Below are positions 3,181 through 31,424 of a DNA stretch of 36,290 nt, piece after piece. This stretch comes from an uncultured Gammaproteobacteria bacterium (GTDB lineage Bacteria; Patescibacteriota; Patescibacteriia; CAZVIU01): NCBI GenBank assembly GCA_964626935.1, contig CAZVIU010000003.1, positions 1-36,290 on the forward strand. The letters run 5' to 3'. Under the pieces are notes generated by a model. That model saw only the letters and a program-made list of their open reading frames with translations. It was not told the origin of the DNA and did no database searches. The first letter of the stretch is position 1; every line of letters begins with the position of its first letter. The position numbers and the translations under genes were made by a program.

Positions 3181-3386
3181 GAGCCCGAAGCACCTTGGGC
3201 GCTTCTGGTTTTATTCTTGGGCCCGAAGCACCTTGGGCGCTTCGGGCCCGGCTATAGGCTTATCTTGTTTTGATCAGTTTATCGTGTTAATATCTTTGAG
3301 TCGGTTTGGTTATGAGCCCGAAGCGTCTTGGGCGTTTCGGATTTGGTTATATTTTCGGCCCGAAGCGCCCAAGGCGCTTCGGGCCC
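3181..3386. repeat. Four copies of palindromic REP-like element GCCCGAAGCRC-N4-6-GCGCTTCGGGC
   Basis: Copies lie at 3181-3208, 3219-3249, 3314-3340 and 3357-3386. Full copies read GGGCCCGAAGCACCTTGGGCGCTTCGGGCCC and are followed by a conserved RGCTAYNNGCT tail. Confidence 0.9.
3265..3293 (+). promoter_or_regulatory. Putative sigma70-type promoter for the first Wzy_C-TPR gene
   Basis: TTGTTT (3265-3270), a 17-nt spacer ending in TGT (extended -10), then TAATAT (3288-3293). This is a pattern match only. It would place REP copies 3 and 4 in the 5' UTR. Confidence 0.25.
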
Positions 3387-3392
3387 AGCTAT

Positions 3393-5744: not shown

Positions 5745-5786
5745 AAATAAGCCATGGATTAATTGCGAATTGCAGTTTTCAGATTG

Positions 5787-5828
5787 CAAATTATAAATCT
5801 GAAATTTTAAATCATAAATTTGAAATTA
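5787..5828 (+). repeat. Heptamer array (NAAATYN)x6 abutting start codon of paralog 2
   Basis: CAAATTA TAAATCT GAAATTT TAAATCA TAAATTT GAAATTA ends 3 nt before ATG 5832. Confidence 0.8.
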
Positions 5829-5831
5829 TTT

Positions 5832-8054: not shown

Positions 8055-8160
8055 AAATTAGTTAGAAATTAAATAGAAATTAAGTATAAATAAATAGAAA
8101 TTAGCTCGCTCACGCTCGCGAAATTAGGTTACAACCTAATTTCTACTTAATTTCTACTTC
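8041..8160. repeat. Composite spacer element: phased TAGAAATT direct repeats, central hairpin, inverted AATTTCTA repeats
   Basis: TAGAAATT lies at 8041, 8052, 8063, 8074 and 8095 (11-nt phase, with degenerate TATAAATA at 8085). The hairpin AAATTAGGTT-AC-AACCTAATTT is at 8121-8142. AATTTCTA lies at 8138 and 8149. The array overlaps the paralog-2 stop codon TAG at 8052-8054. Confidence 0.85.
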
Positions 8161-8186
8161 GTTTCGTGAAGCTAATTTTTTTATTT

Positions 8187-10430
8187 ATGTTGGAAACCCG
8201 TCTCTTGCGATCAATTAAGATTTTATTGTACGCGGTACTTTTTGCTCCAGCCGTAGTAACTTACTCAACTGCTTATCCTTTTTTACATGGCAAGGTTTTC
8301 TGGATTGAGATATTCATAGAATTGCTGCTCGGTTTGTACTTAGTTTTAGTTTTAACCAGCAAAGATTATTGGCCAAAGAAAACGCCGCTTTTTTGGGCTA
8401 TGAGCGCGTTTATAGGCTCACTTGTTATTTCAACGATTTTTTCAGTTGATCGATCAATCAGTTTCTGGGGTGATTGGTCCCGTATGACCGGGCTTATTCT
8501 TTATCTACATCTTTTTGCATTTTTCATCATTTTTTCATCAGTTATAAAAAAAGATTATGAGCGACGCAACTATTTGATATTTTTTAGCTTACTCGGCACG
8601 GTTCTATCTATATTCGCCTGGATTCAAAGATACAATACAAAATTTTTAAAAGCAGTTTGGGTGGGTGGCCGTGTCGGTAGCACCATAGATAATCCGGCCT
8701 TTTTCGCGATTTTTTTAATATTCATAATTTTCATCAATCTCTGGTTAGCTTCTGTTGTTAGTAAAAAATACCGATTATTATTTTTTCTAAGCGCAATTTT
8801 TAATTTTCTAACCGTTTTTATTACCCAAACTAGAGGTGTTATTTTGGGTCTTTTTGCCGGAATGGCCATCTTTGCTTTTTTTAGAGTTATTAAGAGCACG
8901 CTTAAGTGGAAAATAGGCTTGGCAATATTTTTGGCATTGATCTTTGCCGCATTTATTTTTAAACCAACATATAATATTTTAACGCGCGCGCCTGGCCTTG
9001 GCAGAGTCTTAGAAAGTACCCTAATAGACTCCACCGCACAAACACGCCTCTTAACCTGGAAAATAGCAACGCGTGCCTGGCTCGCGCGACCAATTACTGG
9101 CTGGGGACACGAAGCCTTTTATGCGGCATTTAATAAATTCTATAAACCGGAATTTGTTCGTTTTTCTTTTTCTGAAACCTGGTTTGATAAAAGCCATAAT
9201 ATTTTTTTAGACCTTTTGTCAATGAACGGGCTCTTGGGTTTTTTTAGCTATATTTCTATTTTTATTTTTGGTTATATTGTAATAAGTCGAAGCAAAAAGT
9301 TGCCGATGGATTCGACGAGCTCGCCACAAGTGGTTACACAAAATAATGCATATATTAACAAATCACTAGTGCCACTTTATATCTCGCTAATTACGACCTA
9401 TTTCGTTGGAAATTTTTTTGAGTTTGATACGCCGGCCTCGCTTTTAGCCATATTTTTTATATTTGCCCTGATTTATTCATATAGCAACACAAATGATGCG
9501 AATGAGGCACGTTTGACGCCAGCGCAAATTGGGCGGCCAATACAGCCGTCAGTTGTCGCCCTCATCATTATAATTATCAGCATATTGTTATGGTTTGTGC
9601 CGATTAAAAGCGTTATTGCTTCCCGCGGTCTTGATCGCGCCAGTGACCTAATAAGAAATAATTTTGCCCAAGGCGCCAGCGCTTATCGCGAAATAATTGT
9701 AAAAAATAGGCGTTTTTCCGAGCCAGCAGCTCTGGAATACGCCATGCGCCTAAATCAGCTTTTATTAACTGATGACGAGGCCGTAATTAAATATAAAAAC
9801 GACTTTGATTTGACCATGAATAAACTTGAGGATAGCGCGAGGCGCCATAAATTTGATGTAAATTACGTTCTGGCCTATAGTCTTTTAGCCAATACCAGAG
9901 CCACAATGGAAACTGATTTTGCCAAAAAGGCTGAAAAATTATTAGAAGAAAATCGCTTGATGATTAATCCAGGTCGTCAGCAGGTTCTTCTCATGCTTGG
10001 AGAGACAAAACTATTATTAGACAAAAACGATGAAGCGATAAATATTTTAAAACAAGCGCAAGACTTGGCGCCAACTGCCCGTGAAATTAGTTATCGACTA
10101 GCCATTGTTTATTTTGCTAGTGGACTTGAAGAAGAAGGATTCGCGCAACTTAAGAAAGCCAAAATTTTAGGCATGGCTGATATCGGCGCGCAGCCGCTCT
10201 TAGTTTTAATAAGTGTAAACGCTTCCAGGGGTAATTGGGTAAAAGTCGCGGAACTTTACGAAAAATCTGTTAAGCTTGAGCCGAATAATGCCAAACTCTT
10301 TGCCCAAATGGCCACAGCTTATGCTACAATCGGGAATAAGAAACGAGCCCGAGAAGCTGTGGCGCGCGCTGTAGAACTTGACCCGAAATTGAAAGGAGAA
10401 GGAGAACAATTTTTAAGACAAGTTAAATAA
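8187..10430 (+). CDS. Wzy_C (O-antigen-ligase family) membrane protein with C-terminal TPR domain, paralog 3
   Basis: Motifs are SVDRSISFWGDWSRMTG, TRGVILG and ITGWGHEAFYAAFNKFYKPEFVRFSFSETWFDKSHNIFLDLL. The TPR motif is LEPNNAKLFAQMATAYATIGNKKRAREAVARAVELDP. ATG 8187 (MLETRLLRSIKILLYAV) aligns with the paralog N-termini. The track starts at GTG 8166. Confidence 0.85.
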   Translation: MLETRLLRSIKILLYAVLFAPAVVTYSTAYPFLHGKVFWIEIFIELLLGLYLVLVLTSKDYWPKKTPLFWAMSAFIGSLVISTIFSVDRSISFWGDWSRMTGLILYLHLFAFFIIFSSVIKKDYERRNYLIFFSLLGTVLSIFAWIQRYNTKFLKAVWVGGRVGSTIDNPAFFAIFLIFIIFINLWLASVVSKKYRLLFFLSAIFNFLTVFITQTRGVILGLFAGMAIFAFFRVIKSTLKWKIGLAIFLALIFAAFIFKPTYNILTRAPGLGRVLESTLIDSTAQTRLLTWKIATRAWLARPITGWGHEAFYAAFNKFYKPEFVRFSFSETWFDKSHNIFLDLLSMNGLLGFFSYISIFIFGYIVISRSKKLPMDSTSSPQVVTQNNAYINKSLVPLYISLITTYFVGNFFEFDTPASLLAIFFIFALIYSYSNTNDANEARLTPAQIGRPIQPSVVALIIIIISILLWFVPIKSVIASRGLDRASDLIRNNFAQGASAYREIIVKNRRFSEPAALEYAMRLNQLLLTDDEAVIKYKNDFDLTMNKLEDSARRHKFDVNYVLAYSLLANTRATMETDFAKKAEKLLEENRLMINPGRQQVLLMLGETKLLLDKNDEAINILKQAQDLAPTAREISYRLAIVYFASGLEEEGFAQLKKAKILGMADIGAQPLLVLISVNASRGNWVKVAELYEKSVKLEPNNAKLFAQMATAYATIGNKKRAREAVARAVELDPKLKGEGEQFLRQVK

Positions 10431-10440
10431 AAACTTAATT

Positions 10441-10553
10441 GAAATTCGGTGGAAATTTGATAGAAATTATCCCCATCTAAATCCTCCCCCTGCGATACAG
10501 GGGGAGGAAGTAGGAGAGGGTTAATTTCAACTGAATTTCGCGCAGTGAATTTC
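10441..10553. repeat. Composite spacer element: phased GAAATT repeats, GC hairpin, inverted AATTTC repeats
   Basis: GAAATT lies at 10441, 10452 and 10463 (11-nt phase). The hairpin CCTCCCCCTG-CGATA-CAGGGGGAGG is at 10483-10507. AATTTC lies at 10523, 10534 and 10548. The architecture matches 8041-8160. Confidence 0.85.
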
Positions 10554-10569
10554 TATTGAATCTCCGACA

Positions 10570-12786
10570 GTGAGTACCGAAAAACTATCAAAATATCTTT
10601 ACAGATTCATAGTTATTGGTCTGTATGCGGCATTACTCATGCCCTTTATTTATATTGATAATCTTATTTTTCCATTTATCACCGGAAAGGTTTTTATTTT
10701 TCAAATTTTGATTGAAGTCTTATTGGCAGCTTGTTTGCTCCTGATTTATTTAGACAGAAGTTTCCTGCCTAAACAGAGCCTTGTTCTCATCTCGGTTTTT
10801 TTATTTTTAATAAGCATAATTTTATCAACAATTTTTTCATATGACCCTGATCGCAGTTTCTGGGGTAATTATGAACGAATGAGCGGAACATTCACACTTC
10901 TGCATTTTGTCGCTTATTTTTTCATACTCGTTGGTATTTTACGCACGCCGCTTACCTGGAAACGGTATCTTACAGCCGCTGTAGCGCTCTCCGGAGTACA
11001 GGCGGTTATTGGTATAGCGCAATACTATTCTACGAATTTACTTTTAACAGCTGGTGGCGGAAGAATTTGGGGCACGCTGGGTAATTATATCTATTTAGCT
11101 ACTTATGCGATTTTTCACATTTTTATTGGCGCGATGCTTTTGGCGGAAGCAGGCAACAAATCGCCATCCAGTAAGAGCAAGTGGTCAAGGGTGGTTTTTG
11201 GCGGATTGATCTTCTTAAATGTGGTTGTGCTTTATCTCTCGGGCACGCGAGGCGGATATGTTGGTTTTTTATCAGGCTTGAGTTTGGTTGCTATTATTTC
11301 TGTTTTTGTAGCCAAAAATAAGAAAGTAAAATTAATTTTTATCAGCGCCCTCATTCTGGTAATTCTCTTCATGGTTATGGGGCGTGTTTATCGCAGCACT
11401 AAATTTGCGCGGAGCCTTCCCATTGTTGGGCCGCTTTTAAATTTAGACATTAAAGCCGATACTGGTTTTACTCGTTTGATCGGTTGGCAATTAGCCCTAA
11501 AGGGTTGGCAAGATAAACCAATTTTCGGTTGGGGACCAGAAAATTACTATTACGCCTTTAATAAGCATTTCGATCCTAGATCACTTGAAAGAGGGTATTA
11601 TGAAACTTGGTTTGATCGGCCGCACAATATAGTCTTTGATGTTTTATCTACCCAAGGGTTAGTCGGGCTCTTAACTTATCTAAGTATTTTTGTAAGTATT
11701 TTTATAGTTTCTTGGCGCGCTTGGCGACAAAAAATAATTTTAGGGTGGCAATTTGCCCTGTCCTTAGGGGGCGTGGGAGCATACTTTACACAAAATCTTT
11801 TCGTTTTTGATCAGCCAAGTTCTTTTCTTTTATTTTATTTGTTTATTGCTTATTTTCATTCATTGGCTGACGGAGAGCGTAAAAGTATTGAGATGGTTAA
11901 AAACGAGAATCAGAAACGTTCAAGCATTTATTTGGCGATTTTATTGGGGGTAGGGGTTTTGTGGCTGGGATATCAAAGCGTCCTAAAGCCATGGAAAGCC
12001 GGGGTTACCTCTATTGCGGCTGAAAGACTACTCACGACTGATTTTAATCAAGCTTTTGCTATATACCGGCGTGCCACCGAAATAGAAACACCATATAAAG
12101 ATGATATACAGGTTAGTTTAGCCAGAATCGTGCATGAGCGAGCCGGAACTGACGCGATCTTTATTCGCGATAATAAAGAAAAAATAGATTTTACCGTGAG
12201 CGAAGTTAAAAAATTCATTGAAATTCACCCTAACGATGTTTATCCATATATGGCCCTGGCGCAACTCTACGGACTTTTAGCCATTATTGATCCACAATAT
12301 TTTGCGCCGGCTGAAGAAGCCCTTGCCAGGGCCGCGCTTCTCTCGCCAAAACGGCAGCAGATCTATTTTGTCTGGGCCAGGTTTAAGGTCATGCAAAAAG
12401 ACTACACGCAAGCTCACGAGCTAATACAAAAAACCATAGATTTCGATCCTCAAGTTTCAGAAACTTATTGGTATCAAGCGTTAATTTATAATTCCGAAGC
12501 CAATGATGCTAAGGCCTTAGAATACATGAAAGAAGCAAGAAAAAGAGGTTATGGGTGGAAAAATACCACGGAAGCATTTTTATTCGGCAGATTGCTCGAG
12601 ATAAACAAAGATTATGATCAAATACCGCAAGTTTTAAAAGAGATCATTAGCTTAGATTCTAAGGCGGAAAACTATTATTATCTAGCCACTGCTTATCAGC
12701 GCTTGGGGAAAAACGAAGAAGCTCAAAGAGCGCTGGGAAAAGCAGTGGAGACGGACCCAAATATTTTACAAAAAATGCAAAAGTGA
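10570..12786 (+). CDS. Wzy_C (O-antigen-ligase family) membrane protein with C-terminal TPR domain, paralog 4
   Basis: Motifs are SYDPDRSFWGNYERMSG, TRGGYVG and IFGWGPENYYYAFNKHFDPRSLERGYYETWFDRPHNIVFDVL. TPR motifs are LLSPKRQQIYFVWARF, ETYWYQALIY and AENYYYLATAYQRLGKNEEAQRALGKAVETDP. The start is GTG. Confidence 0.85.
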   Translation: MSTEKLSKYLYRFIVIGLYAALLMPFIYIDNLIFPFITGKVFIFQILIEVLLAACLLLIYLDRSFLPKQSLVLISVFLFLISIILSTIFSYDPDRSFWGNYERMSGTFTLLHFVAYFFILVGILRTPLTWKRYLTAAVALSGVQAVIGIAQYYSTNLLLTAGGGRIWGTLGNYIYLATYAIFHIFIGAMLLAEAGNKSPSSKSKWSRVVFGGLIFLNVVVLYLSGTRGGYVGFLSGLSLVAIISVFVAKNKKVKLIFISALILVILFMVMGRVYRSTKFARSLPIVGPLLNLDIKADTGFTRLIGWQLALKGWQDKPIFGWGPENYYYAFNKHFDPRSLERGYYETWFDRPHNIVFDVLSTQGLVGLLTYLSIFVSIFIVSWRAWRQKIILGWQFALSLGGVGAYFTQNLFVFDQPSSFLLFYLFIAYFHSLADGERKSIEMVKNENQKRSSIYLAILLGVGVLWLGYQSVLKPWKAGVTSIAAERLLTTDFNQAFAIYRRATEIETPYKDDIQVSLARIVHERAGTDAIFIRDNKEKIDFTVSEVKKFIEIHPNDVYPYMALAQLYGLLAIIDPQYFAPAEEALARAALLSPKRQQIYFVWARFKVMQKDYTQAHELIQKTIDFDPQVSETYWYQALIYNSEANDAKALEYMKEARKRGYGWKNTTEAFLFGRLLEINKDYDQIPQVLKEIISLDSKAENYYYLATAYQRLGKNEEAQRALGKAVETDPNILQKMQK

Positions 12787-12856: not shown

Positions 12857-14014
12857 TTAATATTTGTATAGCTTAACCGTTTTTATAAGCATTTTGTCAA
12901 AGTTGAATTTTTCTTGGAATTGCCTCGCGGTAGCGTGGCTTAAATTGTTGCGTAACTCTTGATTATCAATAAATTTTTTAAGAGCATTTACAATTGCCCT
13001 TGAATCAGCTGGCGGCACTAAAAGGCCGCTTGTTTCATTTTCTAACATTTCTGGTATGGCGCCCACATTTGTCGCTATAATTGGCACACCGGCTTGTATA
13101 GCTTCAAGCAAGGCATAAGGCAGACCCTCTTTTACCGAAGGGAGCACAAAGAGGTCAAAGGCCTTTAGATAGCGAGCTGCATCAGGCAGGGAGCCGATAA
13201 GATAAAAATTTTGCAATCCATAATTCTTAATTCTTAATTCTAAATTCTCGCGTTCTGGGCCAGAACCGATAATGATGAAACTTGGTTCGACCCCTTCTTT
13301 CTTAAGTACGGCTGCTGCATCAATGAGATATTCAATACCCTTGGTTTTATAAAGATTGGCGATGGTGATAATCCACAGCGGGGAATTAAGAATTGAGAAT
13401 TTAGAATTAAGCTTTGCACGCGCCTCATCGCGTGAAAGAAAACTAATTGGATTGATGCCGTGGGGGATTATGGCAAGTTTTTCCTGATCGCAGATTTTAT
13501 TTTTTAGCGCGGCGGCATAATCATATTGAGAGAGCGTAATTATTCTATCGTGAATTTTGCCAGCAACGCGCTCCATAAATACATATAGTTTTTTGCGCCA
13601 CCAAGGCAGAGGTTCGTTAAAAACCCAGCCGTGGGCAGTGTAAATTAATTTAGGTTTTAGGTTGTAGGTTGTAGGTTGTAGGAATTTTTTAGCCACTGTG
13701 CTGATGAGGCTGGCTTTGGAGCTATTTAGATGGACGATGCTGGGCTGCTCCTTTTTAAAAAATTGTGCTAGCTCAAAAATTGCCGCGATATCTTTAAGCG
13801 GATTAATTTCACGGACGAGATTTTTAAAAGTATGCGTATTAATATCCGCTTCTTTGCATTTTTGTATCAATTCCTGACTACCCTCCGCGCCAGATGCAAC
13901 AGTAATATCAAACTCATCTTTTAAGGCAGTTGCCAAATCAAAAACATAGGCTTGCGCGCCACCCCATTCGCCTTGAGTTACCACATAAATTAGCTTTAAT
14001 TTTGCTGGTTGCAT
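12857..14014 (-). CDS. GT4-family (GT-B) glycosyltransferase
   Basis: The N-terminus is KLIYVVTQGEWGGAQAYVFDLA. The C-terminal donor-binding motif is FVLPSVKEGLPYALLEAIQAGVPIIATNVGAIPEMLENETSGLLVPP (EX7E). Confidence 0.9.
   Translation of the reverse strand: MQPAKLKLIYVVTQGEWGGAQAYVFDLATALKDEFDITVASGAEGSQELIQKCKEADINTHTFKNLVREINPLKDIAAIFELAQFFKKEQPSIVHLNSSKASLISTVAKKFLQPTTYNLKPKLIYTAHGWVFNEPLPWWRKKLYVFMERVAGKIHDRIITLSQYDYAAALKNKICDQEKLAIIPHGINPISFLSRDEARAKLNSKFSILNSPLWIITIANLYKTKGIEYLIDAAAVLKKEGVEPSFIIIGSGPERENLELRIKNYGLQNFYLIGSLPDAARYLKAFDLFVLPSVKEGLPYALLEAIQAGVPIIATNVGAIPEMLENETSGLLVPPADSRAIVNALKKFIDNQELRNNLSHATARQFQEKFNFDKMLIKTVKLYKY
13221..13248. repeat. Heptamer array TAATTCT x4 inside GT4 CDS
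   Basis: TAATTCT TAATTCT TAATTCT AAATTCT is read on the minus strand as ENLELRIKNY. Confidence 0.9.
13383..13411. repeat. Heptamer array GAATTAA x4, inverted partner of 13221-13248, inside the same CDS
   Basis: GAATTAA GAATTGA GAATTTA GAATTAA G is read on the minus strand as KLNSKFSILNS. It lies 134 nt from the inverted array. Confidence 0.9.
13651..13682. repeat. Heptamer array TAGGTTK x4.6 inside GT4 CDS
   Basis: TAGGTTT TAGGTTG TAGGTTG TAGGTTG TAGG is read on the minus strand as QPTTYNLKPK. Confidence 0.9.
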
Positions 14015-14076
14015 ATAAGCATTGATCTTGATATTATAGTGTGATATAGTGGTTTATTCAAGTATCTGATTATTGA

Positions 14077-14140
14077 GCGTTTAGCGCATAGCGGTTAGCG
14101 TTTAGTTAATTGTTCTAAACCCTAAACCCTAAACCCTAGG
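14077..14140. repeat. Two heptamer arrays in divergent intergenic region
   Basis: GCGTTTA GCGCATA GCGGTTA GCGTTTA lies at 14077-14104. CTAAACC CTAAACC CTAAACC CTAGG lies at 14115-14140 and ends at the TTG start at 14141. Confidence 0.85.
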
Positions 14141-15139
14141 TTGGTGTACGAGAAACTAAAAAATGCAAAAGTATTGGTTACCGGTGGGGCCGGCTTTATT
14201 GGCTCGCATCTTTCGCGCCGGCTTTTGGATTTGGGCGCGTATGTCGTGGTTTTAGATAATTTAAGTACTGGCGACAAAAATAATTTGAAATCATGCTTAG
14301 ATTTTCCAAATTTTGATTTTTTTCAAGGTGATGTAAATATTAGAGAGCAGGTCGCCCATGTTTTTAATCATGAAAAAATTGATTATGTTTTTCACGGCGC
14401 TGCTGTTGTCGGAGTAAAAAGAGTTGAGGAGGATCCGCTTTTAGTCCTGCGAGATATTGACGGGATAAGAAATATTTTAGAACTGGCACGCGTTCATGGC
14501 GTAAAAAAAGTAGTTTTTTGTTCTTCGTCAGAAGCTTATGGCGAACCGCAAACCTTACCAGAGCGTGAGGATGGGCCGATAAATCCAAATCCGCGCGATC
14601 CTTACGCGCTTGTTAAGCTCCAGGGTGAGAATTTGATTAGAATTTATGCCGAAAAAATGGGACTTCCTGGCTGTTCTCTGCGTTATTTTAATGTTTACGG
14701 TCCCAATCAAATTGCTTCCGCCTATGGTTTTGTGGTAGGAATTTTTATAAATCAAGTTTTGCAGGGGATAAATCCAACCGTTTTTGGCGATGGCACTCAA
14801 ACACGAGATTTTGTTTATATTGATGATAATATTGAAGCCAATGTGAGAGCGTTAATTTTAGACACGGCTAATAATGGCGAAGTTATCAATGTGGGCAGCG
14901 GCAGACAAACAACCATTTTAGATTTAGCGGAAAGGATTGCTCGGTTGTCAGGAAAAGATCTGCCCTCATTGCGTTTGCCAGAAAGAAAGATTGAGATCCG
15001 TTATCGTGCCCCAGACATAACAAAAATGAAAGAATTACTTGGATTCACGCCGCAGGTTTCGTTGGATGATGGTGTGCGGAAAACAATTGAGTGGTACAAG
15101 AATTTCATTGAGCACCCATCGCCGAACGATTATATTTAG
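14141..15139 (+). CDS. NAD-dependent epimerase/dehydratase (extended SDR; UDP-sugar 4-epimerase-like)
   Basis: VLVTGGAGFIGSHL is a Rossmann motif. The SSSEAYG and YALVK (YxxxK) catalytic motifs are present, as is the FNVYGP motif. The start is TTG 14141 or GTG 14144. Confidence 0.85.
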   Translation: MVYEKLKNAKVLVTGGAGFIGSHLSRRLLDLGAYVVVLDNLSTGDKNNLKSCLDFPNFDFFQGDVNIREQVAHVFNHEKIDYVFHGAAVVGVKRVEEDPLLVLRDIDGIRNILELARVHGVKKVVFCSSSEAYGEPQTLPEREDGPINPNPRDPYALVKLQGENLIRIYAEKMGLPGCSLRYFNVYGPNQIASAYGFVVGIFINQVLQGINPTVFGDGTQTRDFVYIDDNIEANVRALILDTANNGEVINVGSGRQTTILDLAERIARLSGKDLPSLRLPERKIEIRYRAPDITKMKELLGFTPQVSLDDGVRKTIEWYKNFIEHPSPNDYI

Positions 15140-15220
15140 TAATTAAGTCATTGGTCACTAAGTCATTGAGACAATTTTAAATGACTGTTAATTACTTAAT
15201 TACTTAATTACTTAATGACT
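15140..15220. repeat. Inverted octamer arrays spanning the spacer between SDR and GT4 genes
   Basis: The left arm is TAATTAAGTCATT..CTAAGTCATT. The right arm is AAATGACT GTTAATTA CTTAATTA CTTAATTA CTTAATGA. CTTAATTA is the reverse complement of TAATTAAG. The element begins right after the stop codon at 15137-15139, and ATG 15215 lies in its last unit. Confidence 0.85.
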
Positions 15221-16495
15221 CGAGTTGTAATCTTCAGCACCTTCTACGAGCCCTTTATGTCTGGGGCCGAACGAATGGTTAAAGAAGTAGTAGAGCGGTT
15301 GCAAGAGCGCTATTCGTTTATAATTGTTACTTCTCGTTTAAGACGCAATTTGCCCCAGTTTGTTGAGGTCGAACATCGACGCACTTTGCAGCGAGCAGGA
15401 GCGAGCGAAAGAAGGAGGTTCGACCTCGATGACAGTCGAATTAAAATTGTGCGGATCGGTTTTGGTTGGAAATTTGATAAATTTTTGTATCCAATTCTCG
15501 CGCCGTTTTACGCATTAAGATATAGGCCGAAGATTGTTCACGCGATAATGGAGAGCTACGCGGGAATCGCGCTTTTAGTTTATTCGTATCTCGCCAAACT
15601 TTCAAAACCCTTAATTCTTAATTCTCAATTCTTAATTCTAACCTTACGGCGGAGATCGAATCTCGACGCACTCTGCAGCGAGCAGGAGCGAGCGAAAGAA
15701 GGAGATTCGATCTCGCATAAAAATGTATTCACCATTCTAACACTCCAGAGCGGTGACCTTGACCTACCAGAAAAACAGGCGCGGATTCCTAGGTGGCTTT
15801 GGAAGCGAATACATTGTGCGCCCAATCTCATAGTTTCTATTGGAAATTCAATGGCCGAGCGTGCAAGAAAGTTGGGAGCAAAGAGTGTTCGAGTTATTCC
15901 CAACGGTGTTAATCTTACGGAGGTCCGACCTCCAAATATACGGAGGTCGGACCTCCGTCAACATCATATTGTATGTGTTGCCCGTCTTTCTCCTGAAAAG
16001 GGAATTGAATATCTAATCGAAGCAATGCCCTTCGTAATAGCGCAATACCCTGATGCCGAGCTGGTTTTGGTGGGAAATGGCGCATTGAGAGAAAAGCTAC
16101 AAGCTACAAGCTACAAGCTACAAGCTCATGTTGAGTTTAGAGGCACGTTATCTCATGAGAAAACTCTTGAAGAAATGGCCACCTCTGATATTCTCGTTTT
16201 GCCATCTTTAGCCGAGGGCATGGGCATTGTGTTAGTCGAAGCTCAAGCGCTCGGCGTTCCAGTAATCGGTACTAATGTTGGCGGTATTCCAGATGTTATT
16301 GAGCACGAAAGAACAGGCCTGCTCGTGCCGCCACATGACCCGCGCGCAATCGCGCAAGCAGTCATTCGCTTATTTCATGATCACGAACTAAGAGAACGCA
16401 TGGTTGTTGAAGCGGAAACGCGTCTTCTTAAATTTGATTGGCAGAAGATCGCGGAAGAATATAGGAACATTTATGATCAGGTATCAAGCGTATAA
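15215..16495 (+). CDS. GT4-family glycosyltransferase carrying five in-frame repeat insertions
   Basis: The C-terminal motif is ILVLPSLAEGMGIVLVEAQALGVPVIGTNVGGIPDVIEHERTGLLVPP, and ARLSPEKGIEYLIEA is present. The N-domain is interrupted by repeat-encoded segments (see repeats at 15365, 15611, 15652, 15917 and 16094). Confidence 0.85.
   Translation: MTRVVIFSTFYEPFMSGAERMVKEVVERLQERYSFIIVTSRLRRNLPQFVEVEHRRTLQRAGASERRRFDLDDSRIKIVRIGFGWKFDKFLYPILAPFYALRYRPKIVHAIMESYAGIALLVYSYLAKLSKPLILNSQFLILTLRRRSNLDALCSEQERAKEGDSISHKNVFTILTLQSGDLDLPEKQARIPRWLWKRIHCAPNLIVSIGNSMAERARKLGAKSVRVIPNGVNLTEVRPPNIRRSDLRQHHIVCVARLSPEKGIEYLIEAMPFVIAQYPDAELVLVGNGALREKLQATSYKLQAHVEFRGTLSHEKTLEEMATSDILVLPSLAEGMGIVLVEAQALGVPVIGTNVGGIPDVIEHERTGLLVPPHDPRAIAQAVIRLFHDHELRERMVVEAETRLLKFDWQKIAEEYRNIYDQVSSV
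15365..15427 (+). repeat. 63-nt hairpin element, copy 1 (GAGGTCGAAC-N43-GTTCGACCTC)
   Basis: It has a 10-bp perfect stem and is translated EVEHRRTLQRAGASERRRFDL, with element position 1 at codon position 1. Confidence 0.9.
15611..15640 (+). repeat. Heptamer array TTAATTC x4.3 inside CDS
   Basis: TTAATTC TTAATTC TCAATTC TTAATTC TA is translated LILNSQFLIL. Confidence 0.9.
15652..15714 (+). repeat. 63-nt hairpin element, copy 2 (GAGATCGAAT-N43-ATTCGATCTC)
   Basis: The core CGACGCACTYTGCAGCGAGCAGGAGCGAGCGAAAGAAGGAG matches copy 1, which differs at one position within it (the Y). It is read in a different frame, as RRSNLDALCSEQERAKEGDSIS. Confidence 0.9.
15917..15957 (+). repeat. Two adjacent copies of palindrome ACGGAGGTCSGACCTCC inside CDS
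   Basis: Copies lie at 15917-15933 and 15940-15957 and are translated TEVRPPNIRRSDLR. The arms resemble the stem of the 63-nt element. Confidence 0.9.
16094..16127 (+). repeat. Heptamer array (AAGCTAC)x4 perfect plus a partial unit, inside CDS
   Basis: This is a direct read, translated KLQATSYKLQA. Confidence 0.95.
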
Positions 16496-16562
16496 TGTCA
16501 TCGCGAGGCAGAAGGCCGTGGCGATCTTTATAAAGATTGTAACGCTTTTGCTCGCAATGACA
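16496..16562. repeat. Intergenic inverted repeat TGTCATCGCGAG / CTCGCAATGACA with internal palindrome
   Basis: The stem is 12 bp with one mismatch. The loop contains the perfect palindrome ATCTTTATAAAGAT (16524-16537). It starts 1 nt after the stop codon at 16493-16495, so it is a possible terminator or processing structure. Confidence 0.7.
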
Positions 16563-16572
16563 TGACTGACGA

Positions 16573-17880
16573 ATGAAGATTTTAATAGCAACAGGAATTT
16601 ATGGAGGTTTGGGAGATATAGGTGGCCCGGCAATATATTCAGAGTCTCTTGCGCGAGAGTTGATTAAGCGCGGGCACAAAGTGACCGTTGTTACTTATTC
16701 TAGTTCATATAAATCCGAAATCCGAAATCCTCCGCCAAAGGCGGATCAGTCTCTGACTGAGAAATCCGAAACAAATCCGAAATCAGAAATTCAAAACTCT
16801 AATTTTTTATTAGTACGAGTTCAACGCGAATTACCACTGCTATTGCGGTATAGTTTTTATAAATTGACAGCACTCTGGCACGGATGGCACGCAGATATCA
16901 TATACGCTCAAGATTCAGTTTCTGCAGGATTTCCTACAATGTTGGCTAATCTAATTTTGCGAAAACCATTTATTTTGAAAGTTATTGGCGATTATGCGTG
17001 GGAGCAGTATCAAAATCAAAAATCAAAAATCAAAAATCAAAAATTAGGTATGTTGCCAAGCAGTATTGATCATAATGGTTTGTCGCTAGACGATTTTTTA
17101 AATGAAAAACCCAGTGGCAAGATTAAGGCTTTTTGGAATATTGAAAGATGGGTGGCAAGACGCGCCAACAAGATTATTGTGCCGAGCAATTATCTAAGAG
17201 GCGTGGTGCAGAAGTGGGGGATTCAATCAGCCAAGATTGAGGTGATTTATAATTCTTTTGACTGGAGCTCATTACAAAACTCGATCTCTAAAGTTCCGGT
17301 CGAGACCCCAGAGGCCACACCGCATGATACTATCTATTCAGTCGGTCGTCTTGTTCCGTGGAAAGGATTTGATACGTTGATTGAAATAATGCCCGAGGCA
17401 TTGAAAGAAAAACCAAATACAGAGCTCGTGATCTACGGCGATGGACCGATGCGTGAAGGTTTAAGATTTAAGATTAAAGATTTAGGATTAGAGACTCATG
17501 TGAAACTTTTGGGAAGAATAGATCACGCGAAGCTCTTGGAAGCCTTGCAGGGTGAGCGCAAGTTTTTTGTGCTTAACAGTTCGTACGAAGGTATGTCTCA
17601 TCAAATTTTAGAGTGTCAGGCTTTGAAAATTCCTTGCGCGGTTAGCCGCGTCGGCGGAAATCCGGAAATTGTGGAGAACGAAAAAACTGGTTTGCTTTTT
17701 GAATATAATAATAAAGAACAGATCAAAAACGCAATCATACGACTGCTTGACGAGCAAGCACTCGTCGAACATATAAGAGAAAAAGCCTATGCACAGATTA
17801 AAGATCGGCACGATTTTAATCAAATGATTGAAAAAACGATAACCGTACTCCAATCCACACTATCATACTATATAGTATGA
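16573..17880 (+). CDS. GT4-family glycosyltransferase carrying in-frame repeat insertions
   Basis: The N-terminus is KILIATGIYGGLGDIGGPAIYSESLARELIKRGHKVTVVT. GRLVPWKGFDTLIE is present. The C-terminal motif is FVLNSSYEGMSHQILECQALKIPCAVSRVGGNPEIVENEKTGLLFE. Confidence 0.88.
   Translation: MKILIATGIYGGLGDIGGPAIYSESLARELIKRGHKVTVVTYSSSYKSEIRNPPPKADQSLTEKSETNPKSEIQNSNFLLVRVQRELPLLLRYSFYKLTALWHGWHADIIYAQDSVSAGFPTMLANLILRKPFILKVIGDYAWEQYQNQKSKIKNQKLGMLPSSIDHNGLSLDDFLNEKPSGKIKAFWNIERWVARRANKIIVPSNYLRGVVQKWGIQSAKIEVIYNSFDWSSLQNSISKVPVETPEATPHDTIYSVGRLVPWKGFDTLIEIMPEALKEKPNTELVIYGDGPMREGLRFKIKDLGLETHVKLLGRIDHAKLLEALQGERKFFVLNSSYEGMSHQILECQALKIPCAVSRVGGNPEIVENEKTGLLFEYNNKEQIKNAIIRLLDEQALVEHIREKAYAQIKDRHDFNQMIEKTITVLQSTLSYYIV
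16711..16800 (+). repeat. 90-nt composite module: AAATCCG array, two hairpins, AAATCNG array; exactly 30 codons
   Basis: AAATCCG AAATCCG AAATCCT is followed by TCCGCC-AAA-GGCGGA, then TCAGTC-TCT-GACTGA, then AAATCCG..AAATCCG AAATCAG AAATTCA AAACTCT. It is translated KSEIRNPPPKADQSLTEKSETNPKSEIQNS. Confidence 0.9.
17011..17044 (+). repeat. Heptamer array (CAAAAAT)x4 perfect, preceded by CAAAAT, inside CDS
   Basis: This is a direct read, translated QNQKSKIKNQK. Confidence 0.95.
17460..17494 (+). repeat. Degenerate heptamer array TTTAAGA x5 inside CDS
   Basis: TTTAAGA TTTAAGA TTAAAGA TTTAGGA TTAGAGA is translated LRFKIKDLGLE. Confidence 0.8.
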
Positions 17881-17887
17881 TAGTGTG
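17856..17887. repeat. Perfect 32-nt palindrome spanning the stop codon of the GT4 gene
   Basis: CACACTATCATACTAT|ATAGTATGATAGTGTG. The TGA stop at 17878-17880 lies in the right arm. It encodes the C-terminal tail STLSYYIV and is a candidate terminator hairpin. Confidence 0.9.
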
Positions 17888-17926
17888 AGGTTCAGTTAGA
17901 TTGTCGCTGTTTCTACGGTGATAACT

Positions 17927-19153
17927 ATGCGGGTTTTAATAATAAGTCTTGATCAATCAATCCTAGATCCGGCGTCAGAAGCGCGAAGCAGGATGTTGGA
18001 ATATGCGGCGCTCGCAGATGGTTTATATGTTTTTGTATTTGCGAAACGCGGATCTACACGCGGATCTTCTCGCGCGGATCTACACGCGGATCAGAATTTA
18101 TTTATATATAGATTCAGTGCAAGCACTGTCGGTTGGATTAAGGCGTTATTTTTCGGTAGACGACTCGTGCGCGAAAAACAAATTGATGTAGTAAGTTCGC
18201 AGGATCCCTTTGAAACCGGCCTACTCGGATATCTAATTGTTAAATTGATGCACTTTCATACTATAAAGTATGAAAGTGCCAGTACAGTAGGTTTGAATGT
18301 GCAGTTGCACGGGGACTTTTATGGAAATCCATATTGGCGAATTGAACAATTATTGAATCGGTTGCGGTGGCATCTTGGATTATTTGTTATGCGTCGCGCT
18401 GGCAGCATTCGTGTTGTTAGCGAAAGAATAAAACAAAGCTTAGAAGCAAGAATTAAGAATCAAGAATTAAGGATTATCAAGGCTCCTATTTATACGGACA
18501 TAGAATTTTTTCGTACTGCCAAACCGATTTTCAACTTGAAAGAAAAGTATCCACAATTCAATTTTATAATTATCACCGTTGCTAATCTTGTGCCTGTTAA
18601 AAACTTAGAATTTCTTATTAACGCGATGAAAAAGCTGCATGAAATTTTAACCAATGCCGGATTGGTGATCGTCGGTGATGGTCCACTCCACAAAAAGCTA
18701 AAAGCTAAAAGCTACAAGCTACAAGCTAACAATTACATTATTTTTGAGGGTACGCAAAAAGGTTTAGTTTCATATTATAAAGGTGCTGATTGCTTGGCGC
18801 TTGTTTCCAAGTACGAGGGTTGGGGCAGGGTAGTGGTGGAGGCCGTCGCTAGCGGTTTGCCCATTGTGATGAGTGATGTTGGGTTAGCGGGAGAATTGAT
18901 TAGGGACGAAGAGAGCGGTCTTGTTGTGCTGAAGCGAAACTTCGACCAATGGAAGTTTCGCTTCGATCAGAACGCCGAAGATGACCTAGTTCGCGCGCTT
19001 TCACAAGTCTATTTTAACGAAAATTTAAGAAAAAAATTGATTGCTGGCGCGACAAATGCCTTGCAGCAGTTACCCTTAAAACAAGAAACACTAGAGTTGA
19101 TTAAAAAGTCGTGGGAGCTTGCAACGCGTAAAAGCAACGGTATTCACGATTAA
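17927..19153 (+). CDS. GT4-family glycosyltransferase carrying five in-frame repeat insertions
   Basis: MRVLIISLDQSILDPASEARSRMLEYA is the N-terminus. The C-terminal motif is LALVSKYEGWGRVVVEAVASGLPIVMSDVGLAGELIRDEESGLVV. ATG 17927 is preferred over GTG 17918. Confidence 0.85.
   Translation: MRVLIISLDQSILDPASEARSRMLEYAALADGLYVFVFAKRGSTRGSSRADLHADQNLFIYRFSASTVGWIKALFFGRRLVREKQIDVVSSQDPFETGLLGYLIVKLMHFHTIKYESASTVGLNVQLHGDFYGNPYWRIEQLLNRLRWHLGLFVMRRAGSIRVVSERIKQSLEARIKNQELRIIKAPIYTDIEFFRTAKPIFNLKEKYPQFNFIIITVANLVPVKNLEFLINAMKKLHEILTNAGLVIVGDGPLHKKLKAKSYKLQANNYIIFEGTQKGLVSYYKGADCLALVSKYEGWGRVVVEAVASGLPIVMSDVGLAGELIRDEESGLVVLKRNFDQWKFRFDQNAEDDLVRALSQVYFNENLRKKLIAGATNALQQLPLKQETLELIKKSWELATRKSNGIHD
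18047..18092 (+). repeat. Four copies of CGCGGATCT spaced 12/14/12 nt inside CDS
   Basis: CGCGGATCTACA CGCGGATCTTCTCG CGCGGATCTACA CGCGGATC is translated RGSTRGSSRADLHAD. The first two copies are read as R-G-S and the last two as A-D-L. Confidence 0.9.
18250..18279 (+). repeat. Hairpin GCACTTTCATACT-ATAA-AGTATGAAAGTGC inside CDS
   Basis: It has a perfect 13-bp stem and is translated MHFHTIKYESA. It shares the TCATACTAT..AGTATGA core with the palindrome at 17856-17887. Confidence 0.9.
18448..18475 (+). repeat. Heptamer array AAGAATT x4 inside CDS (same family as 13383 and 15611)
   Basis: AAGAATT AAGAATC AAGAATT AAGGATT is translated RIKNQELRI. Confidence 0.9.
18695..18729 (+). repeat. Heptamer array AAGCTAM x5 inside CDS
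   Basis: AAGCTAA AAGCTAA AAGCTAC AAGCTAC AAGCTAA is translated KLKAKSYKLQAN. The family and protein position match 16094-16127. Confidence 0.95.
18931..18964 (+). repeat. Hairpin GAAGCGAAACTTC-N8-GAAGTTTCGCTTC inside CDS
   Basis: It has a perfect 13-bp stem and is translated KRNFDQWKFRF. It shares the GAAGCG/CGCTTC core with the REP-like family at 3181-4211. Confidence 0.9.
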
Positions 19154-19278: not shown

Positions 19279-20427
19279 TTAAGATGTCGTTCTGCCTGCG
19301 GCAATTTGTGCGTTGCTATAGCCTTCCTCATCGGTTACATCTTTCTGTGCCCTGATAAATGGAGGCACAATGAACTCCGTGTTCTCTTCAGTCAATTCAA
19401 TTTCCAAAATAGTTAGATCTGCGGGGACAATAAATTCGTCAAGATGAAAATATTGACTTCGGTAAGCAAATGAGTGTCGGCGTTTTTTAATCGTTACAAG
19501 ACGTGTATCACGATCTTCAAGGAGCGCGGCGTACTCGCGGCTAGAAATAATACGTTCGGTTTTGTACCAGGTTCCCGGGCCAATTTTCTTTTTTTCTGTG
19601 TATGTATAGAGAGTGCTTTTTGAGTCTACGCCGTACATTCTTGCTCGTACGCGGCGTTCAGCGCCAGAGTCTCCGGAATTTAGATATGTTTGTTCAATGG
19701 TGATCGTTGTTCTAGGCGTTGCTACGTCGTGCATGTCGAGTGTAACAAGAAAACGGCGAGCAATTTGGAGTGGCGCCGGAATATCGAGCGCGTGACATAC
19801 TTCAGCAACAAGTCGTTCCATTTTTTCATCAAAAGTTATTTTTTCCTCAACACCGATGATAATTTTTGTGTTACCGATAATGCGCAGATGTGGGTGTCCC
19901 ATCCAGGCGGAAAGCGTTGCGGTATCGCGTGCCATGGCGGCTTCAAGCGTTTTTTCGTATCGGGCTGGATTATCAAGATTGTAAAATTCTGGAGCGCCGT
20001 CTGCCGCAGTTACAAGGTGAATGACTGCAGTATAGCGTTCATCGCCAATAGTGCGCGGATCATATCCAAGTCCAGAAACAATGTTATCAAATACTGCCGC
20101 ATCAATATACGCTCTTCCATCCCTGAATCCACGATCACATACAAGGGCTTTCTTGCTCCCTGGTTGAATGCAGGCAAATCGTTTCCAGGCGTCCTCAATG
20201 CCGAGTTGAGTTCGCGCAATTTCTTTTTGAAATGCCGCATTCAAGGCGTGGTCCCCGACAATATCTTGAATATGCACACCACTTGTTAAAACGAGTGTAG
20301 CAACTTCTGGTACAAGAAATGGGGTTATACCAAATTCAGGTAGTTTTTGCATGAGAATAGAAAGTCCAGTGGATTTGCCAGCGCATGGCCCACCAGTTAA
20401 AACAATCCTAGGGATATGGTCGGTCAT
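19279..20427 (-). CDS. P-loop NTPase (AAA_28/NadR-kinase-like) fused to a C-terminal CYTH (triphosphate-tunnel) domain
   Basis: Walker A is VLTGGPCAGKST and Walker B-like is ALVCDRG. The C-terminal half carries CYTH-type strands: QIARRFLV (at the EXEXK position, degenerate), IEQTYL, RRVRAR, IKKRRHSFAY, YFHLDEF and ILEIEL. A canonical SD (AAGGAG) lies 9 nt upstream of the ATG. Confidence 0.7.
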   Translation of the reverse strand: MTDHIPRIVLTGGPCAGKSTGLSILMQKLPEFGITPFLVPEVATLVLTSGVHIQDIVGDHALNAAFQKEIARTQLGIEDAWKRFACIQPGSKKALVCDRGFRDGRAYIDAAVFDNIVSGLGYDPRTIGDERYTAVIHLVTAADGAPEFYNLDNPARYEKTLEAAMARDTATLSAWMGHPHLRIIGNTKIIIGVEEKITFDEKMERLVAEVCHALDIPAPLQIARRFLVTLDMHDVATPRTTITIEQTYLNSGDSGAERRVRARMYGVDSKSTLYTYTEKKKIGPGTWYKTERIISSREYAALLEDRDTRLVTIKKRRHSFAYRSQYFHLDEFIVPADLTILEIELTEENTEFIVPPFIRAQKDVTDEEGYSNAQIAAGRTTS

Positions 20428-22538: not shown

Positions 22539-23567
22539 ATGGAACTTTTGATTATTACTCAGAAAGTTGATTTAGTCGATCCAATACTCGGCTTTTTTCA
22601 TCGTTGGATTGAAAAATTTGCGCATCACTTTGAGAGAGTAGAAGTTATCGCGTTGGAAGTTAGAGAACATAATCTACCAGCAAATGTTTCAGTGCATTCC
22701 TTGGGAAAAGAAAAAGGTTATGGAAGATTGCATCGTGCTATATTCTATATTCTGTATTCTATATTCTTGCGATATGACGCGGTTTTTGTTCACATGAACC
22801 CAGAATATCTCGCTCTTTTCGGTTGGTACTGGAAATTGATGGGCAAACGCACAGCGCTATGGTACACGCATAAATCAGTAACCTGGTGGTTATGCTTGGC
22901 GGAGAAATTTGCTGATAAGATTTTTACCGCATCGCGCGAAAGTTTTCGCTTGCCGAGCAGAAAGGTTGAGATTATTGGACATGGGATAGAGATGGAACTT
23001 TTCATAAGAACACAAGAACACAAGAACACAAGAACAAATTTACGATTATTATCGGTCGGAAGAATAGCATCCAGTAAAGACTTGGAGACGATTATTCGCG
23101 CAGCTCAAAAATTATCTAACGACGGTATACAGGTTACGCTTGATATTGTTGGAGCGCCTGTAATGGGTGCTGATTTTGAATATGAGAAAGCACTGCATGA
23201 GACTATTAAAAATCTAAACCCTGAAGACGTCATTAAATTTTTAGGTCCGAAGAATTATGAAGGAATGCCCAAGATTTATGGTGAACACGATTTATTGATT
23301 CATACATCCAAAACAGGAAGTGTTGATAAAGTCGTTCTTGAAGCGCTCGCCTGTGGCACGCCAGTAATAAGTTCAAGCGAGGCATTCCACGATCTTCCAG
23401 AATATCTGCGGTTTAAGGAAAATGATGTAGAAGATTTGGCCAGTAAAATAATTAATTTCACGCAAGTCAAACCAGACATATCAAAATTGACTGAATTAGT
23501 TCGTAGCCAAAGCAATCTCGACACACTAATTAAAAAAATATCCAATTTTCTAAATTCTGCATTCTAA
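22539..23567 (+). CDS. Glycosyltransferase (GT-B/GT4-like, short form)
   Basis: Motifs are LLIITQKVDLVDPILGFFHRWIEKFA, LSVGRIASSKDLETIIRAA and LLIHTSKTGSVDKVVLEALACGTPVISSS. The stop codon lies inside a heptamer array. Confidence 0.8.
   Translation: MELLIITQKVDLVDPILGFFHRWIEKFAHHFERVEVIALEVREHNLPANVSVHSLGKEKGYGRLHRAIFYILYSIFLRYDAVFVHMNPEYLALFGWYWKLMGKRTALWYTHKSVTWWLCLAEKFADKIFTASRESFRLPSRKVEIIGHGIEMELFIRTQEHKNTRTNLRLLSVGRIASSKDLETIIRAAQKLSNDGIQVTLDIVGAPVMGADFEYEKALHETIKNLNPEDVIKFLGPKNYEGMPKIYGEHDLLIHTSKTGSVDKVVLEALACGTPVISSSEAFHDLPEYLRFKENDVEDLASKIINFTQVKPDISKLTELVRSQSNLDTLIKKISNFLNSAF
22738..22767 (+). repeat. Heptamer array CTATATT x4 inside CDS
   Basis: CTATATT CTATATT CTGTATT CTATATT is translated AIFYILYSIF. 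Confidence 0.85.
23006..23037 (+). repeat. Octamer array (AAGAACAC)x3 plus AAGAACAA inside CDS
   Basis: This is a direct read, translated RTQEHKNTRT. The family matches 4901 and 31355. Confidence 0.95.
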
Positions 23568-23582
23568 ATTCTATATTCTTGT
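23548..23582 (+). repeat. Heptamer array TTCTNNA x5 containing the gene's stop codon
   Basis: The array is TTCTAAA TTCTGCA TTCTAAA TTCTATA TTCTTGT. TAA 23565-23567 lies in unit 3. Confidence 0.85.
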
Positions 23583-25557: not shown

Positions 25558-25580
25558 AAACATTAAAACATGAAAATAAT
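25549..25580. repeat. Octamer array AAAACATG x4 (reverse complement of the GTTTTCAT family) over the stop/start junction
   Basis: The array is AAAACATG AAAACATT AAAACATG AAAATAAT. It contains the asnB-like stop (25555-25557) and the ATG at 25554. Confidence 0.9.
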
Positions 25581-31379: not shown

Positions 31380-31424
31380 AAACAATTTTTTGTTTTAATG
31401 TTTTCATGTTTTAATGTTTTAATG
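31355..31424 (+). repeat. Composite element: AGAACANA octamers, 13-nt spacer, GTTTTMAT octamers, spanning a stop-intergenic-start junction
   Basis: AGAACACA AGAACAAA AGAGCATA contains the TAA stop at 31377-31379. AAAACAATTTTTT follows, then GTTTTAAT GTTTTCAT GTTTTAAT GTTTTAAT G, which contains ATG 31422. It is homologous to 4901-5042. Confidence 0.9.

Follow-up and report, generated by a model that had tools for sequence, protein, structure and literature searches.

Heptanucleotide repeat arrays recur at a few structural positions of GT4 glycosyltransferases encoded in a polysaccharide gene cluster

We analyzed the tandem and palindromic repeats within the glycosyltransferase family 4 (GT4) genes of a 36,290-bp stretch of DNA, hereafter the window, which is a large polysaccharide cluster with Wzy_C/TPR, GT4-type, glycosyltransferase family 2 (GT2), sugar-nucleotide enzyme, and methyltransferase genes. 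The window encodes six GT4-type transferases, named GT_A to GT_F: GT_A (12857–14014, minus strand, 385 amino acids [aa]), GT_B (15215–16495, 426 aa), GT_C (16573–17880, 435 aa), GT_D (17918–19153, 411 aa), the divergent GT4-like GT_E (22539–23567, 342 aa), and GT_F (26382–27554). GT_B to GT_E and the repeats within and around them are given on the plus strand. Only a few positions of the GT-B fold retain arrays of 7-nt units. Helix Cα2 of the C-domain is the foremost of these, and the others are the interdomain linker, two surface loops of the N-domain, the Nβ5-Nα4 loop, and the Nα5/Nβ7 segment. We favor the explanation, which we hold with about even confidence, that the repeats were generated by slippage, were filtered by protein structure, and were kept as frameshift switches.

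The window contains 11 arrays of at least three units with a period of 7 and seven with a period of 8, none with periods of 9–12, and one each with periods of 5 and 6. Shuffled window sequence gave no array with a period of 7 or more. Coding sequence contains nine of the 11 heptamer arrays, in each case within one of five GT4 genes. Since a unit of 7 nt is not a whole number of codons, each array uses all three reading frames, and three units encode one period of seven residues. The unit consensus contains TAA in six of the 11 arrays, and each of the eight in-frame stops that a perfect array would have carried is abolished by one substitution (to TTA, TAT, TAC, CAA, or AAA). Would-be in-frame stops were abolished in the same manner in 16 of 16 cases among the metagenome arrays described below. 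AAGCTAC, the unit that GT_B and GT_D have in common, represents AAGCTAA with the stop escaped to Tyr. This escape of every in-frame stop by a single substitution indicates selection on the reading frame. At the DNA level, the arrays are repeats of the slippage type that are constrained by coding. The recurrent units are AAGAATT, AAGCTAC/A, AAATCTC, AAAATTT, and AAAATCA.

The repeats had been listed in an earlier note on this DNA, which proposed that different repeat families occupy the same loops, at four shared sites, of paralogous GT4 proteins. All of them were recovered by Tandem Repeats Finder, repeat search, and open reading frame (ORF) translation within a few bases of the positions listed there, each in frame inside an ORF. 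We placed them on the fold using homologs (approximately 100 each for GT_A, GT_B, and GT_D and 38 for GT_C) in per-family alignments, a 100-sequence four-family alignment, hhalign maps, and AlphaFold2 (AF2) models of GT_B and GT_D. Profile alignment and the two models agree with the four shared sites, except that one GT_D array, listed as near site 3, belongs elsewhere.

Site 4 is helix Cα2, which lies between strands Cβ2 and Cβ3 inside the C-domain, and it carries a heptamer array in GT_A, GT_B, GT_C, and GT_D. In GT_A, AGAATTA ×4 (coding strand; 13219–13248, minus strand) encodes ENLELRIKNY without added length and shows two stop escapes (TAA to TTA and TAA to TAT). In GT_B, a perfect AAGCTAC ×4.7 array (16092–16126) encodes KLQATSYKLQA, and the helix is 2 residues shorter than in the homologs. 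In regards to GT_C and GT_D, AAGATTT ×4.9 (17456–17494) encodes EGLRFKIKDLGLET without added length and an AAGCTAA/AAGCTAC array (18691–18737) encodes KKLKAKSYKLQANNY; the sharing of AAGCTAC between GT_B and GT_D, two of the four site 4 arrays, had been recognized before. The four arrays have an alignment occupancy of 0.97–1.0 and a predicted local distance difference test (pLDDT) score of at least 95, which makes them substitutions within a helix and not loop insertions.

Sites 1 and 2 are of a different kind. Site 1, the Nβ2-Nβ3 loop, is occupied in GT_B by copy 1 of a 64-nt palindromic element (15365–15428; approximately 15 residues added, pLDDT 50–62), in GT_C by an AAATCCG heptamer array broken by two small hairpins (16711–16790; approximately 22 residues extra), and in GT_D by CGCGGATCT(ACA) repeats (18046–18092; approximately 6 residues extra, pLDDT 63–69). 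The GT_D repeats proved to be direct repeats, and not a hairpin, in the folding analysis. Site 2, the Nα3-Nβ5 loop, holds CCTACAA ×4.6 in GT_A (coding strand; 13649–13682, minus strand), encoding FLQPTTYNLKPK with 9 of 12 residues extra relative to the homologs. In GT_B it holds CTTAATT ×4.3 (15610–15639; one stop escape, TAA to CAA), which opens a 41-residue insertion, together with copy 2 of the 64-nt element (15652–15715; 91% identical to copy 1), and in GT_D a 28-nt palindrome (18251–18278; approximately 11 residues extra relative to the homologs). The repeats at both sites are real insertions with respect to the homologs, adding 6 to 41 residues with pLDDT values of 50–75.

Site 3 corresponds to the linker that joins Nβ7 to Cβ1. 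It holds CTTAATT ×4 in GT_A (coding strand; 13383–13411, minus strand), encoding LNSKFSILNS; two GGAGGTC(C/G)GACCTCC palindromes in GT_B (15916–15956), which fold as a 17-bp hairpin with z = −9.3; and an octamer array, AAGAACAC ×3.9, in GT_E (23003–23036). The reassigned GT_D array, AAGAATT ×4–5 (18442–18476), encodes LEARIKNQELRII without added length at the end of Nα5 and in strand Nβ7, a site that is separate from site 3 and partly core. Taken together with the site 4 arrays, it falls in ordered structure (occupancy 0.8–1.0, block-mean pLDDT of at least 88). The Nβ5-Nα4 loop forms a fifth site, where GT_C carries a perfect AAAATCA ×4.7 array (17012–17044) that encodes QNQKSKIKNQKL and had been left unplaced in the earlier note. 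GT_E further contains CTATATT ×4.3 in helix Nα2 (22736–22767), encoding AIFYILYSIFL, and a TTCTAAA-type array (23548–23579) that covers its last codons and stop codon. The description of the repeats as loop insertions is thus accurate for sites 1 and 2, but site 4 and the GT_D AAGAATT segment are regular secondary structure of unchanged length. Sites 3 and 4 had been described as flanking the domain junction, but site 4 is internal to the C-domain.

The coincidence of sites was compared with random placement. In the window, 13 repeat overlaps between genes were found versus 5.9 expected (P = 0.004), and the chance of one site common to all four genes under random placement of the window's elements is 0.03. 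The same sites recur in related proteins. Among 508 homologs, runs of at least four identical residues at a lag of 7 numbered 40, versus 2–6 at other lags from 4 to 12, and the lag-7 runs map to the sites found in the query proteins. Of 65 such runs in the GT_D family, Cα2 accounts for 27, Nα5/Nβ7 for 13, the end of Nα2 for 10, and site 1 for 6; in the GT_C family, Cα2 and the Nβ5-Nα4 loop account for 9 each.

We also collected 80 metagenome loci around GT_D relatives, totaling 881 kb. These loci contain 57 arrays of 7-nt units in GT4 ORFs (307 kb), one in other ORFs (522 kb), and five in intergenic DNA (52 kb), so that GT4 genes exceed the remaining coding sequence approximately 90–100-fold in array density. 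At the peptide level, lag-7 runs numbered 21 in GT4 ORFs versus 0–4 at other lags, and 6 versus 1–9, which is background, in non-GT4 ORFs. Twenty-two of the 57 GT4 arrays lie in the 18 Cα2 states of a common GT4 profile, where 2.7 are expected under uniform placement and 2.4–2.7 under variability weighting (P ~1e-15); when arrays are collapsed by unit and site, 16 of 49 remain there (P ~1e-10). The Cα2 arrays are spread across at least nine GT4 clusters at 35% identity, and the C-terminal helices, of equal or greater variability, hold few arrays. These results indicate that the coincidence of sites goes beyond loop content, since the Cα2 excess exceeds the variability prediction.

These densities bear directly on a neutral origin, in which a lineage-wide slippage bias produces 7-nt duplications everywhere and purifying selection spares those at tolerant GT-B positions, the arrays having no function. 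Heptamer arrays do occupy intergenic spacers of the window as well, the array sites fall within the more variable 10–25% of each family alignment, the repeats that add length are low-confidence excursions of the models, and the arrays remain stable in comparisons of near-identical genomes. Heptamer over-representation in many bacteria has been suggested to arise from polymerase slippage (PMC4692102, PMC4679880). For 57 arrays in GT4 genes to stand against one in 1.7-fold more non-GT4 coding sequence, however, GT4 genes would need approximately 100 times the tolerance of their neighbors; moreover, the Cα2 excess remains under variability weighting, and the nearly empty C-terminal helices are equally or more variable. 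We consider a purely neutral origin doubtful, although we give it appreciable weight. Insertion tolerance, one of two explanations offered by the earlier note, is supported for the length-adding repeats at sites 1 and 2, which are extra with respect to approximately 100 homologs per family and have low pLDDT, but not for the ordered, fixed-length Cα2 helix. Tolerance alone is insufficient because the Cα2 excess survives variability weighting, the variable C-terminal helices are near empty, and the array density in GT4 genes is approximately 90-fold higher. In regards to targeted placement, the second of these explanations, we found no support for placement of the heptamers by mobile elements, but mobility of the 64-nt hairpin has support, as described below.

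Both the GT4 specificity and the homologous placement would also be accounted for if rare arrays had spread among GT4 paralogs through gene conversion in short patches, with the GDGP and VxFxG flanks as anchors. Two of the most conserved motifs flank site 4, and identical site 4 peptides occur across GT4 families: LELRIKNYGLQN is found in GT_A and in a GT_D ortholog on locus L054, and KLQATSYKLQA and NLKSQISNLK are each found in several families. However, few units are both stop-free and compatible with a helix, and these could converge on the same peptides. Paralogs at the same locus mostly differ in their site 4 unit (three units on L118 and two each on L074 and L086), the DNA around the GT_B and GT_D arrays shows no identity above that of ordinary conserved motifs, and chimeric genes were not found in four assemblies of this cluster or in the 80 loci. 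We regard such family-internal spread as improbable.

It is a weaker form of an idea put forward in the earlier note, that shared arrays at homologous positions allow paralogs to cross over and so produce new acceptor/donor combinations. It is true that the AAGCTAC arrays of GT_B and GT_D, which lie 2.6 kb from each other in direct orientation, are identical over up to 22 nt. Nonetheless, the flanking identity of that pair is the ordinary one just given, units differ in most paralog pairs, the four assemblies are collinear, and neither chimeric nor split GT4 ORFs were found in the 80 loci. Because site 4 is internal to the C-domain, crossing over at this position would miss the junction of the acceptor and donor domains and would not exchange whole domains. 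We give this proposal hardly any credence. Long tblastn spans in the 80 loci, considered as candidate split GT4 genes, were adjacent tandem GT4 genes and were rejected.

Turnover of the units at fixed sites is apparent among orthologs. GT_D and three orthologs (61–67% identity) have a Cα2 segment of equal length built from the units AAGCTAA/C, ACGCTAA, AGCTTAC, or GAATTAA. AAGCTAA/C and ACGCTAA differ by one base in every unit, which indicates concerted evolution by slippage. In the ortholog on L054, which bears GAATTAA in Cα2, approximately 31 of 36 bases and the peptide match the array of the paralog GT_A (13219–13248), a likeness that may reflect convergence or conversion. The Nα5/Nβ7 segment of GT_D orthologs carries AAGAATT, its reverse complement AATTCTT, or CAGATTT.

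A protein-level function would make the encoded peptides the selected trait and the DNA repeats the easiest route to it. The peptides are heptad-periodic, rich in Lys and Arg, and amphipathic (KSKIKNQK, ELRIKNH, and IGNWKLEIGN, for example), three 7-nt units yield exactly one 7-residue heptad, and membrane association or partner contacts could be the benefit. GT4 enzymes with lipid-linked acceptors, such as PimA, bind membranes through amphipathic segments of the N-domain. The main hotspot, however, is in the C-domain, and many different units occur per site, with orthologs holding unrelated peptides and even the reverse-complement unit at the same position. Selection on the protein would, in addition, not preserve a 7-nt periodicity of the DNA. 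This function is very improbable in our view.

Variation within the lineage was examined using three other assemblies of the cluster (L056, L057, and L058), four with the window. Between L056 (14.5 kb) and the window there is one single-nucleotide polymorphism, and L058 (3.7 kb) matches the window exactly. In regards to L057 (8.9 kb), an independent ENA assembly, the sole difference is the loss of one 8-nt AAGAACAC unit in GT_E (L057 7820–7845). The unit loss shifts the frame of GT_E, giving products of 176 and 134 aa.

The favored explanation, slippage-generated repeats filtered by structure and retained as frameshift switches, would operate as follows. Slippage would generate short arrays of 7-nt, and a few of 8-nt, units in the GT4 genes of a surface-polysaccharide cluster, and protein structure would determine where they survive. 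Second-order selection for switchable expression would account for their build-up in GT4 genes. The gain or loss of one unit would turn a transferase off or on and thereby vary the surface glycan, as do the contingency loci of small-genome, host-attached bacteria. Palindromic inserts, a separate small mobile or REP-like (repetitive extragenic palindromic) class, would pass the same structural filter.

Simple sequence repeat (SSR) contingency loci are known in glycosyltransferase genes, including Haemophilus lic2A/lgtC/losA, Neisseria lgt, the poly-G/C tracts of Campylobacter and Helicobacter, and GT genes of Pasteurella multocida (PMC2651432, PMC8437040, PMC9176279). The arrays described here resemble them in having non-triplet units within the glycosyltransferase ORFs of loci for surface glycans, in the one frameshifting unit variant seen, in the strong enrichment in one class of surface-structure genes, and in the small genomes of probably host-attached cells. 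They differ in their 7- or 8-nt units of 3–5 copies, often imperfect and several per gene, at fixed mid-gene structural positions in ordered structure, and in belonging to environmental bacteria of the candidate phyla radiation (CPR).

We tentatively extend this explanation to the Patescibacteria (CPR) as a lineage, although we think the extension somewhat more likely to be wrong than right. It would comprise a phase-variable gene set based on heptamer repeats in GT4 genes, above all in Cα2, that encode a heptad-periodic peptide when the gene is ON and shift the frame when the unit number changes, giving stochastic surface-glycan variation in regulator-poor, host-attached cells. All close homologs of GT_B, GT_C, and GT_D that bear names are from Patescibacteria, e.g., Parcubacteria and Giovannonibacteria, and as judged from these sequences the organism is probably a Patescibacteria bacterium. 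The window itself carries no marker gene. A cyanobacterial origin, suggested at first by the heptamer repeats, was rejected on the strength of these homologs.

Several observations weigh against switching by frameshift. The arrays are short (3–5 units), often imperfect, several per gene, and located mid-gene, whereas the tracts of classical contingency loci have greater length, lie close to the 5′ end, and usually occur singly (PMC3315296). Switching of unit number was seen only once, in an array of 8-nt units. GT_A–GT_D carried unvarying heptamer arrays across the four assemblies, and a comparison of near-identical locus pairs of other lineages, approximately 90 kb in all, revealed no array indels. 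Consensus assemblies reveal majority alleles only, and missing variants therefore neither prove nor exclude frequent switching. Heptamer arrays are missing from the GT2 and Wzy genes of the same clusters, a surprising absence if selection acts on glycan switching generally. The statistics are inflated to an unquantified extent by phylogenetic non-independence, and the assignment of the organism is based on named homologs only.

Heptamer repeats are over-represented, mostly in intergenic DNA, in many bacteria, as in cyanobacterial short tandemly repeated repetitive sequences, the GGGAATC-type repeats of Xanthomonas and Nostoc, and TAACTGA of Beggiatoaceae (PMC4692102, PMC4679880). The present arrays share with these families the tandem 7-nt units, 2–6 or more copies, a limited unit repertoire, occurrence in both orientations, and stops in the unit that limit coding use. 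Unlike those overwhelmingly intergenic families, they are coding in 9 of 11 cases in the window and in 58 of 63 in the related loci, are found in a single gene family, and belong to another phylum with other units. We found no literature report of heptamer arrays in CPR or in GT4 genes, which, as coverage was incomplete, is absence of evidence only. The tandem repeats of Borgs (PMC9879509) are similar in that perfect, recently formed arrays within ORFs add peptide at permissive places. The Borg ORF repeats, however, have units that are multiples of 3 and disordered products, whereas the 7-nt units here pass through three frames and often replace an ordered helix at unchanged length.

The palindromic inserts look like a separate class of small mobile DNA, similar to REP sequences or miniature inverted-repeat transposable elements, that is subject to the same structural filter. 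The palindromes of the window fold far better than shuffled sequences, with z values from −3.2 to −9.4. The two copies of the 64-nt element (15365–15428 and 15652–15715) have inverted termini (GAGGTCGAAC/GTTCGACCTC) and differ by paired stem changes, GAGGTCGAAC/GTTCGACCTC versus GAGATCGAAT/ATTCGATCTC, which keep full complementarity. Copy numbers are low: besides these two and a related copy on L001, there are two copies of the 28-nt palindrome. In the GT_B ortholog on L001, sites 2 and 4 carry arrays, site 3 carries a hairpin with the same termini and a different interior, and the hairpins of sites 1 and 2 are missing. Mobility of the 64-nt hairpin is supported by sequence comparison because the related copy occupies a different site in this ortholog. 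The 28-nt palindrome is perfect and terminator-like where it overlaps the stop codon of GT_C (17858–17885), and its sister inside GT_D is coding.

Relatives of the GGAGGTC palindrome were found at site 1 of another GT4 gene on L094, L116, and L118 and also on L009 and L036, and two Patescibacteria metagenome-assembled genomes are among the carriers. A scan of genome contigs with the 3′ end of the hairpin gave 49 matches, approximately the number expected by chance, of which only L009 and L036 were related. Generic GC-rich hairpins are weakly enriched in GT4 genes (1.04 versus 0.63 per 10 kb) without site specificity, which indicates that the hairpin class is not a general feature of GT4. No Rfam family matched in the window. 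Like Rickettsia palindromic elements (PMC10969869), these inserts are small palindromes lying in frame at surface positions compatible with the fold, with copies in different genes and sites. Unlike the Rickettsia elements (approximately 100–150 nt), they measure 28–75 nt, have 2–3 copies and unrelated sequence, and often lie beside or nested in heptamer arrays.

The assignment of the transferases is based on Pfam, homologs, and models. Glycos_transf_1 (PF00534) matched GT_A–GT_E with E-values of 2e-20 to 2.5e-43 (9e-38 for GT_A, which also matched Glyco_transf_4 at 5e-21), and PF13439 and PF13579 were significant in GT_A and GT_C and weaker in GT_B and GT_D. The AF2 models of GT_B (pLDDT 88.7) and GT_D (pLDDT 91.8) consist of alternating β/α elements in two Rossmann-like domains, and the top Foldseek matches of GT_B were MshA, PimB′, BshA, and SPS (probability 1.00, TM-score up to 0.80). 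The E-x7-E motif of the C-domain is present in the translations of GT_A (EGLPYALLE), GT_B (EGMGIVLVE), GT_C (EGMSHQILE), and GT_D (EGWGRVVVE); in GT_E the first Glu is substituted (GSVDKVVLE). GT_A–GT_D are distant paralogs with 20–27% identity, and GT_E aligned to the GT_B family by hhalign with a probability of 97.8. GT_C is identical to the public protein P0121, and GT_D is also identical to a public protein.

In regards to GT_B, for which typical homologs have approximately 368 aa, the homolog alignment favors the upstream ATG at 15215 (426 aa), whereas public gene calls use 15257 (Met15; 412 aa), 14 codons late. The 412-aa form was considered as a polymorphic variant and rejected, as it differs in the start-codon call and in nothing more. 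Such genes may mislead gene callers and homology tools, as with GT_E, split in one assembly, and GT_B, whose start was called late. Enzymes of the GT_B and GT_C types, encoded by adjacent separate genes in the window, are fused as two-module proteins of approximately 745 aa in many Patescibacteria (P0002, P0093, and others). GT_D residues 340–354 (18935–18979) contain a further insertion, RNFDQWKFRFDQNAE, with a 21-nt duplication (FDQWKFR/FDQ) that the earlier note had not listed; it is missing in two orthologs and partial in a third.

Additional repeats were observed outside the GT4 coding sequences. Octamer arrays lie on gene boundaries: TTAATTAC ×4.1 (15188–15220) is directly 5′ of the GT_B start codon and overlaps it, and others are at 25547–25576 (asnB stop/methyltransferase start), 31355–31385 (GT2 stop), and 31391–31424 (rmlD start). 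Unit changes in these arrays could alter translation initiation or coupling. Nearly all intergenic spacers in the left half of the window contain tandem arrays, with units of 7, 11, 14, 21/22, and 25 nt (5788–5827, 8033–8159, 10441–10573, and 14076–14138), including the spacers between four Wzy_C/TPR paralogs and the divergent promoter region of GT_A and an epimerase gene. These four consecutive paralogs (3306–12786; 738–812 aa) each have a Wzy_C domain and C-terminal TPR repeats and form an unusual fourfold tandem set resembling O-antigen ligases/polymerases. The first of them contains two in-frame octamer arrays, CAAGAGAA ×5.2 (4898–4941), which is perfect and the longest array of the window, and CATGTTTT ×4 (5010–5042). 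The window further contains an ORF of 979 aa without a Pfam match (128–3067) and, mid-cluster on the opposite strand, an AAA_28 ATPase with a long uncharacterized C-terminal half (19279–20427).

One would expect mid-gene repeats of a non-triplet unit to be purged. In this case they are regular and positionally conserved in one enzyme family of many uncultivated genomes. If the pattern holds, it provides a natural experiment on the parts of the GT-B fold that accept arbitrary heptad-periodic sequence. If the arrays switch, they would be, to our knowledge, the first known evidence of repeat-mediated phase variation in CPR bacteria, whose surface glycans probably govern host attachment and phage exposure.

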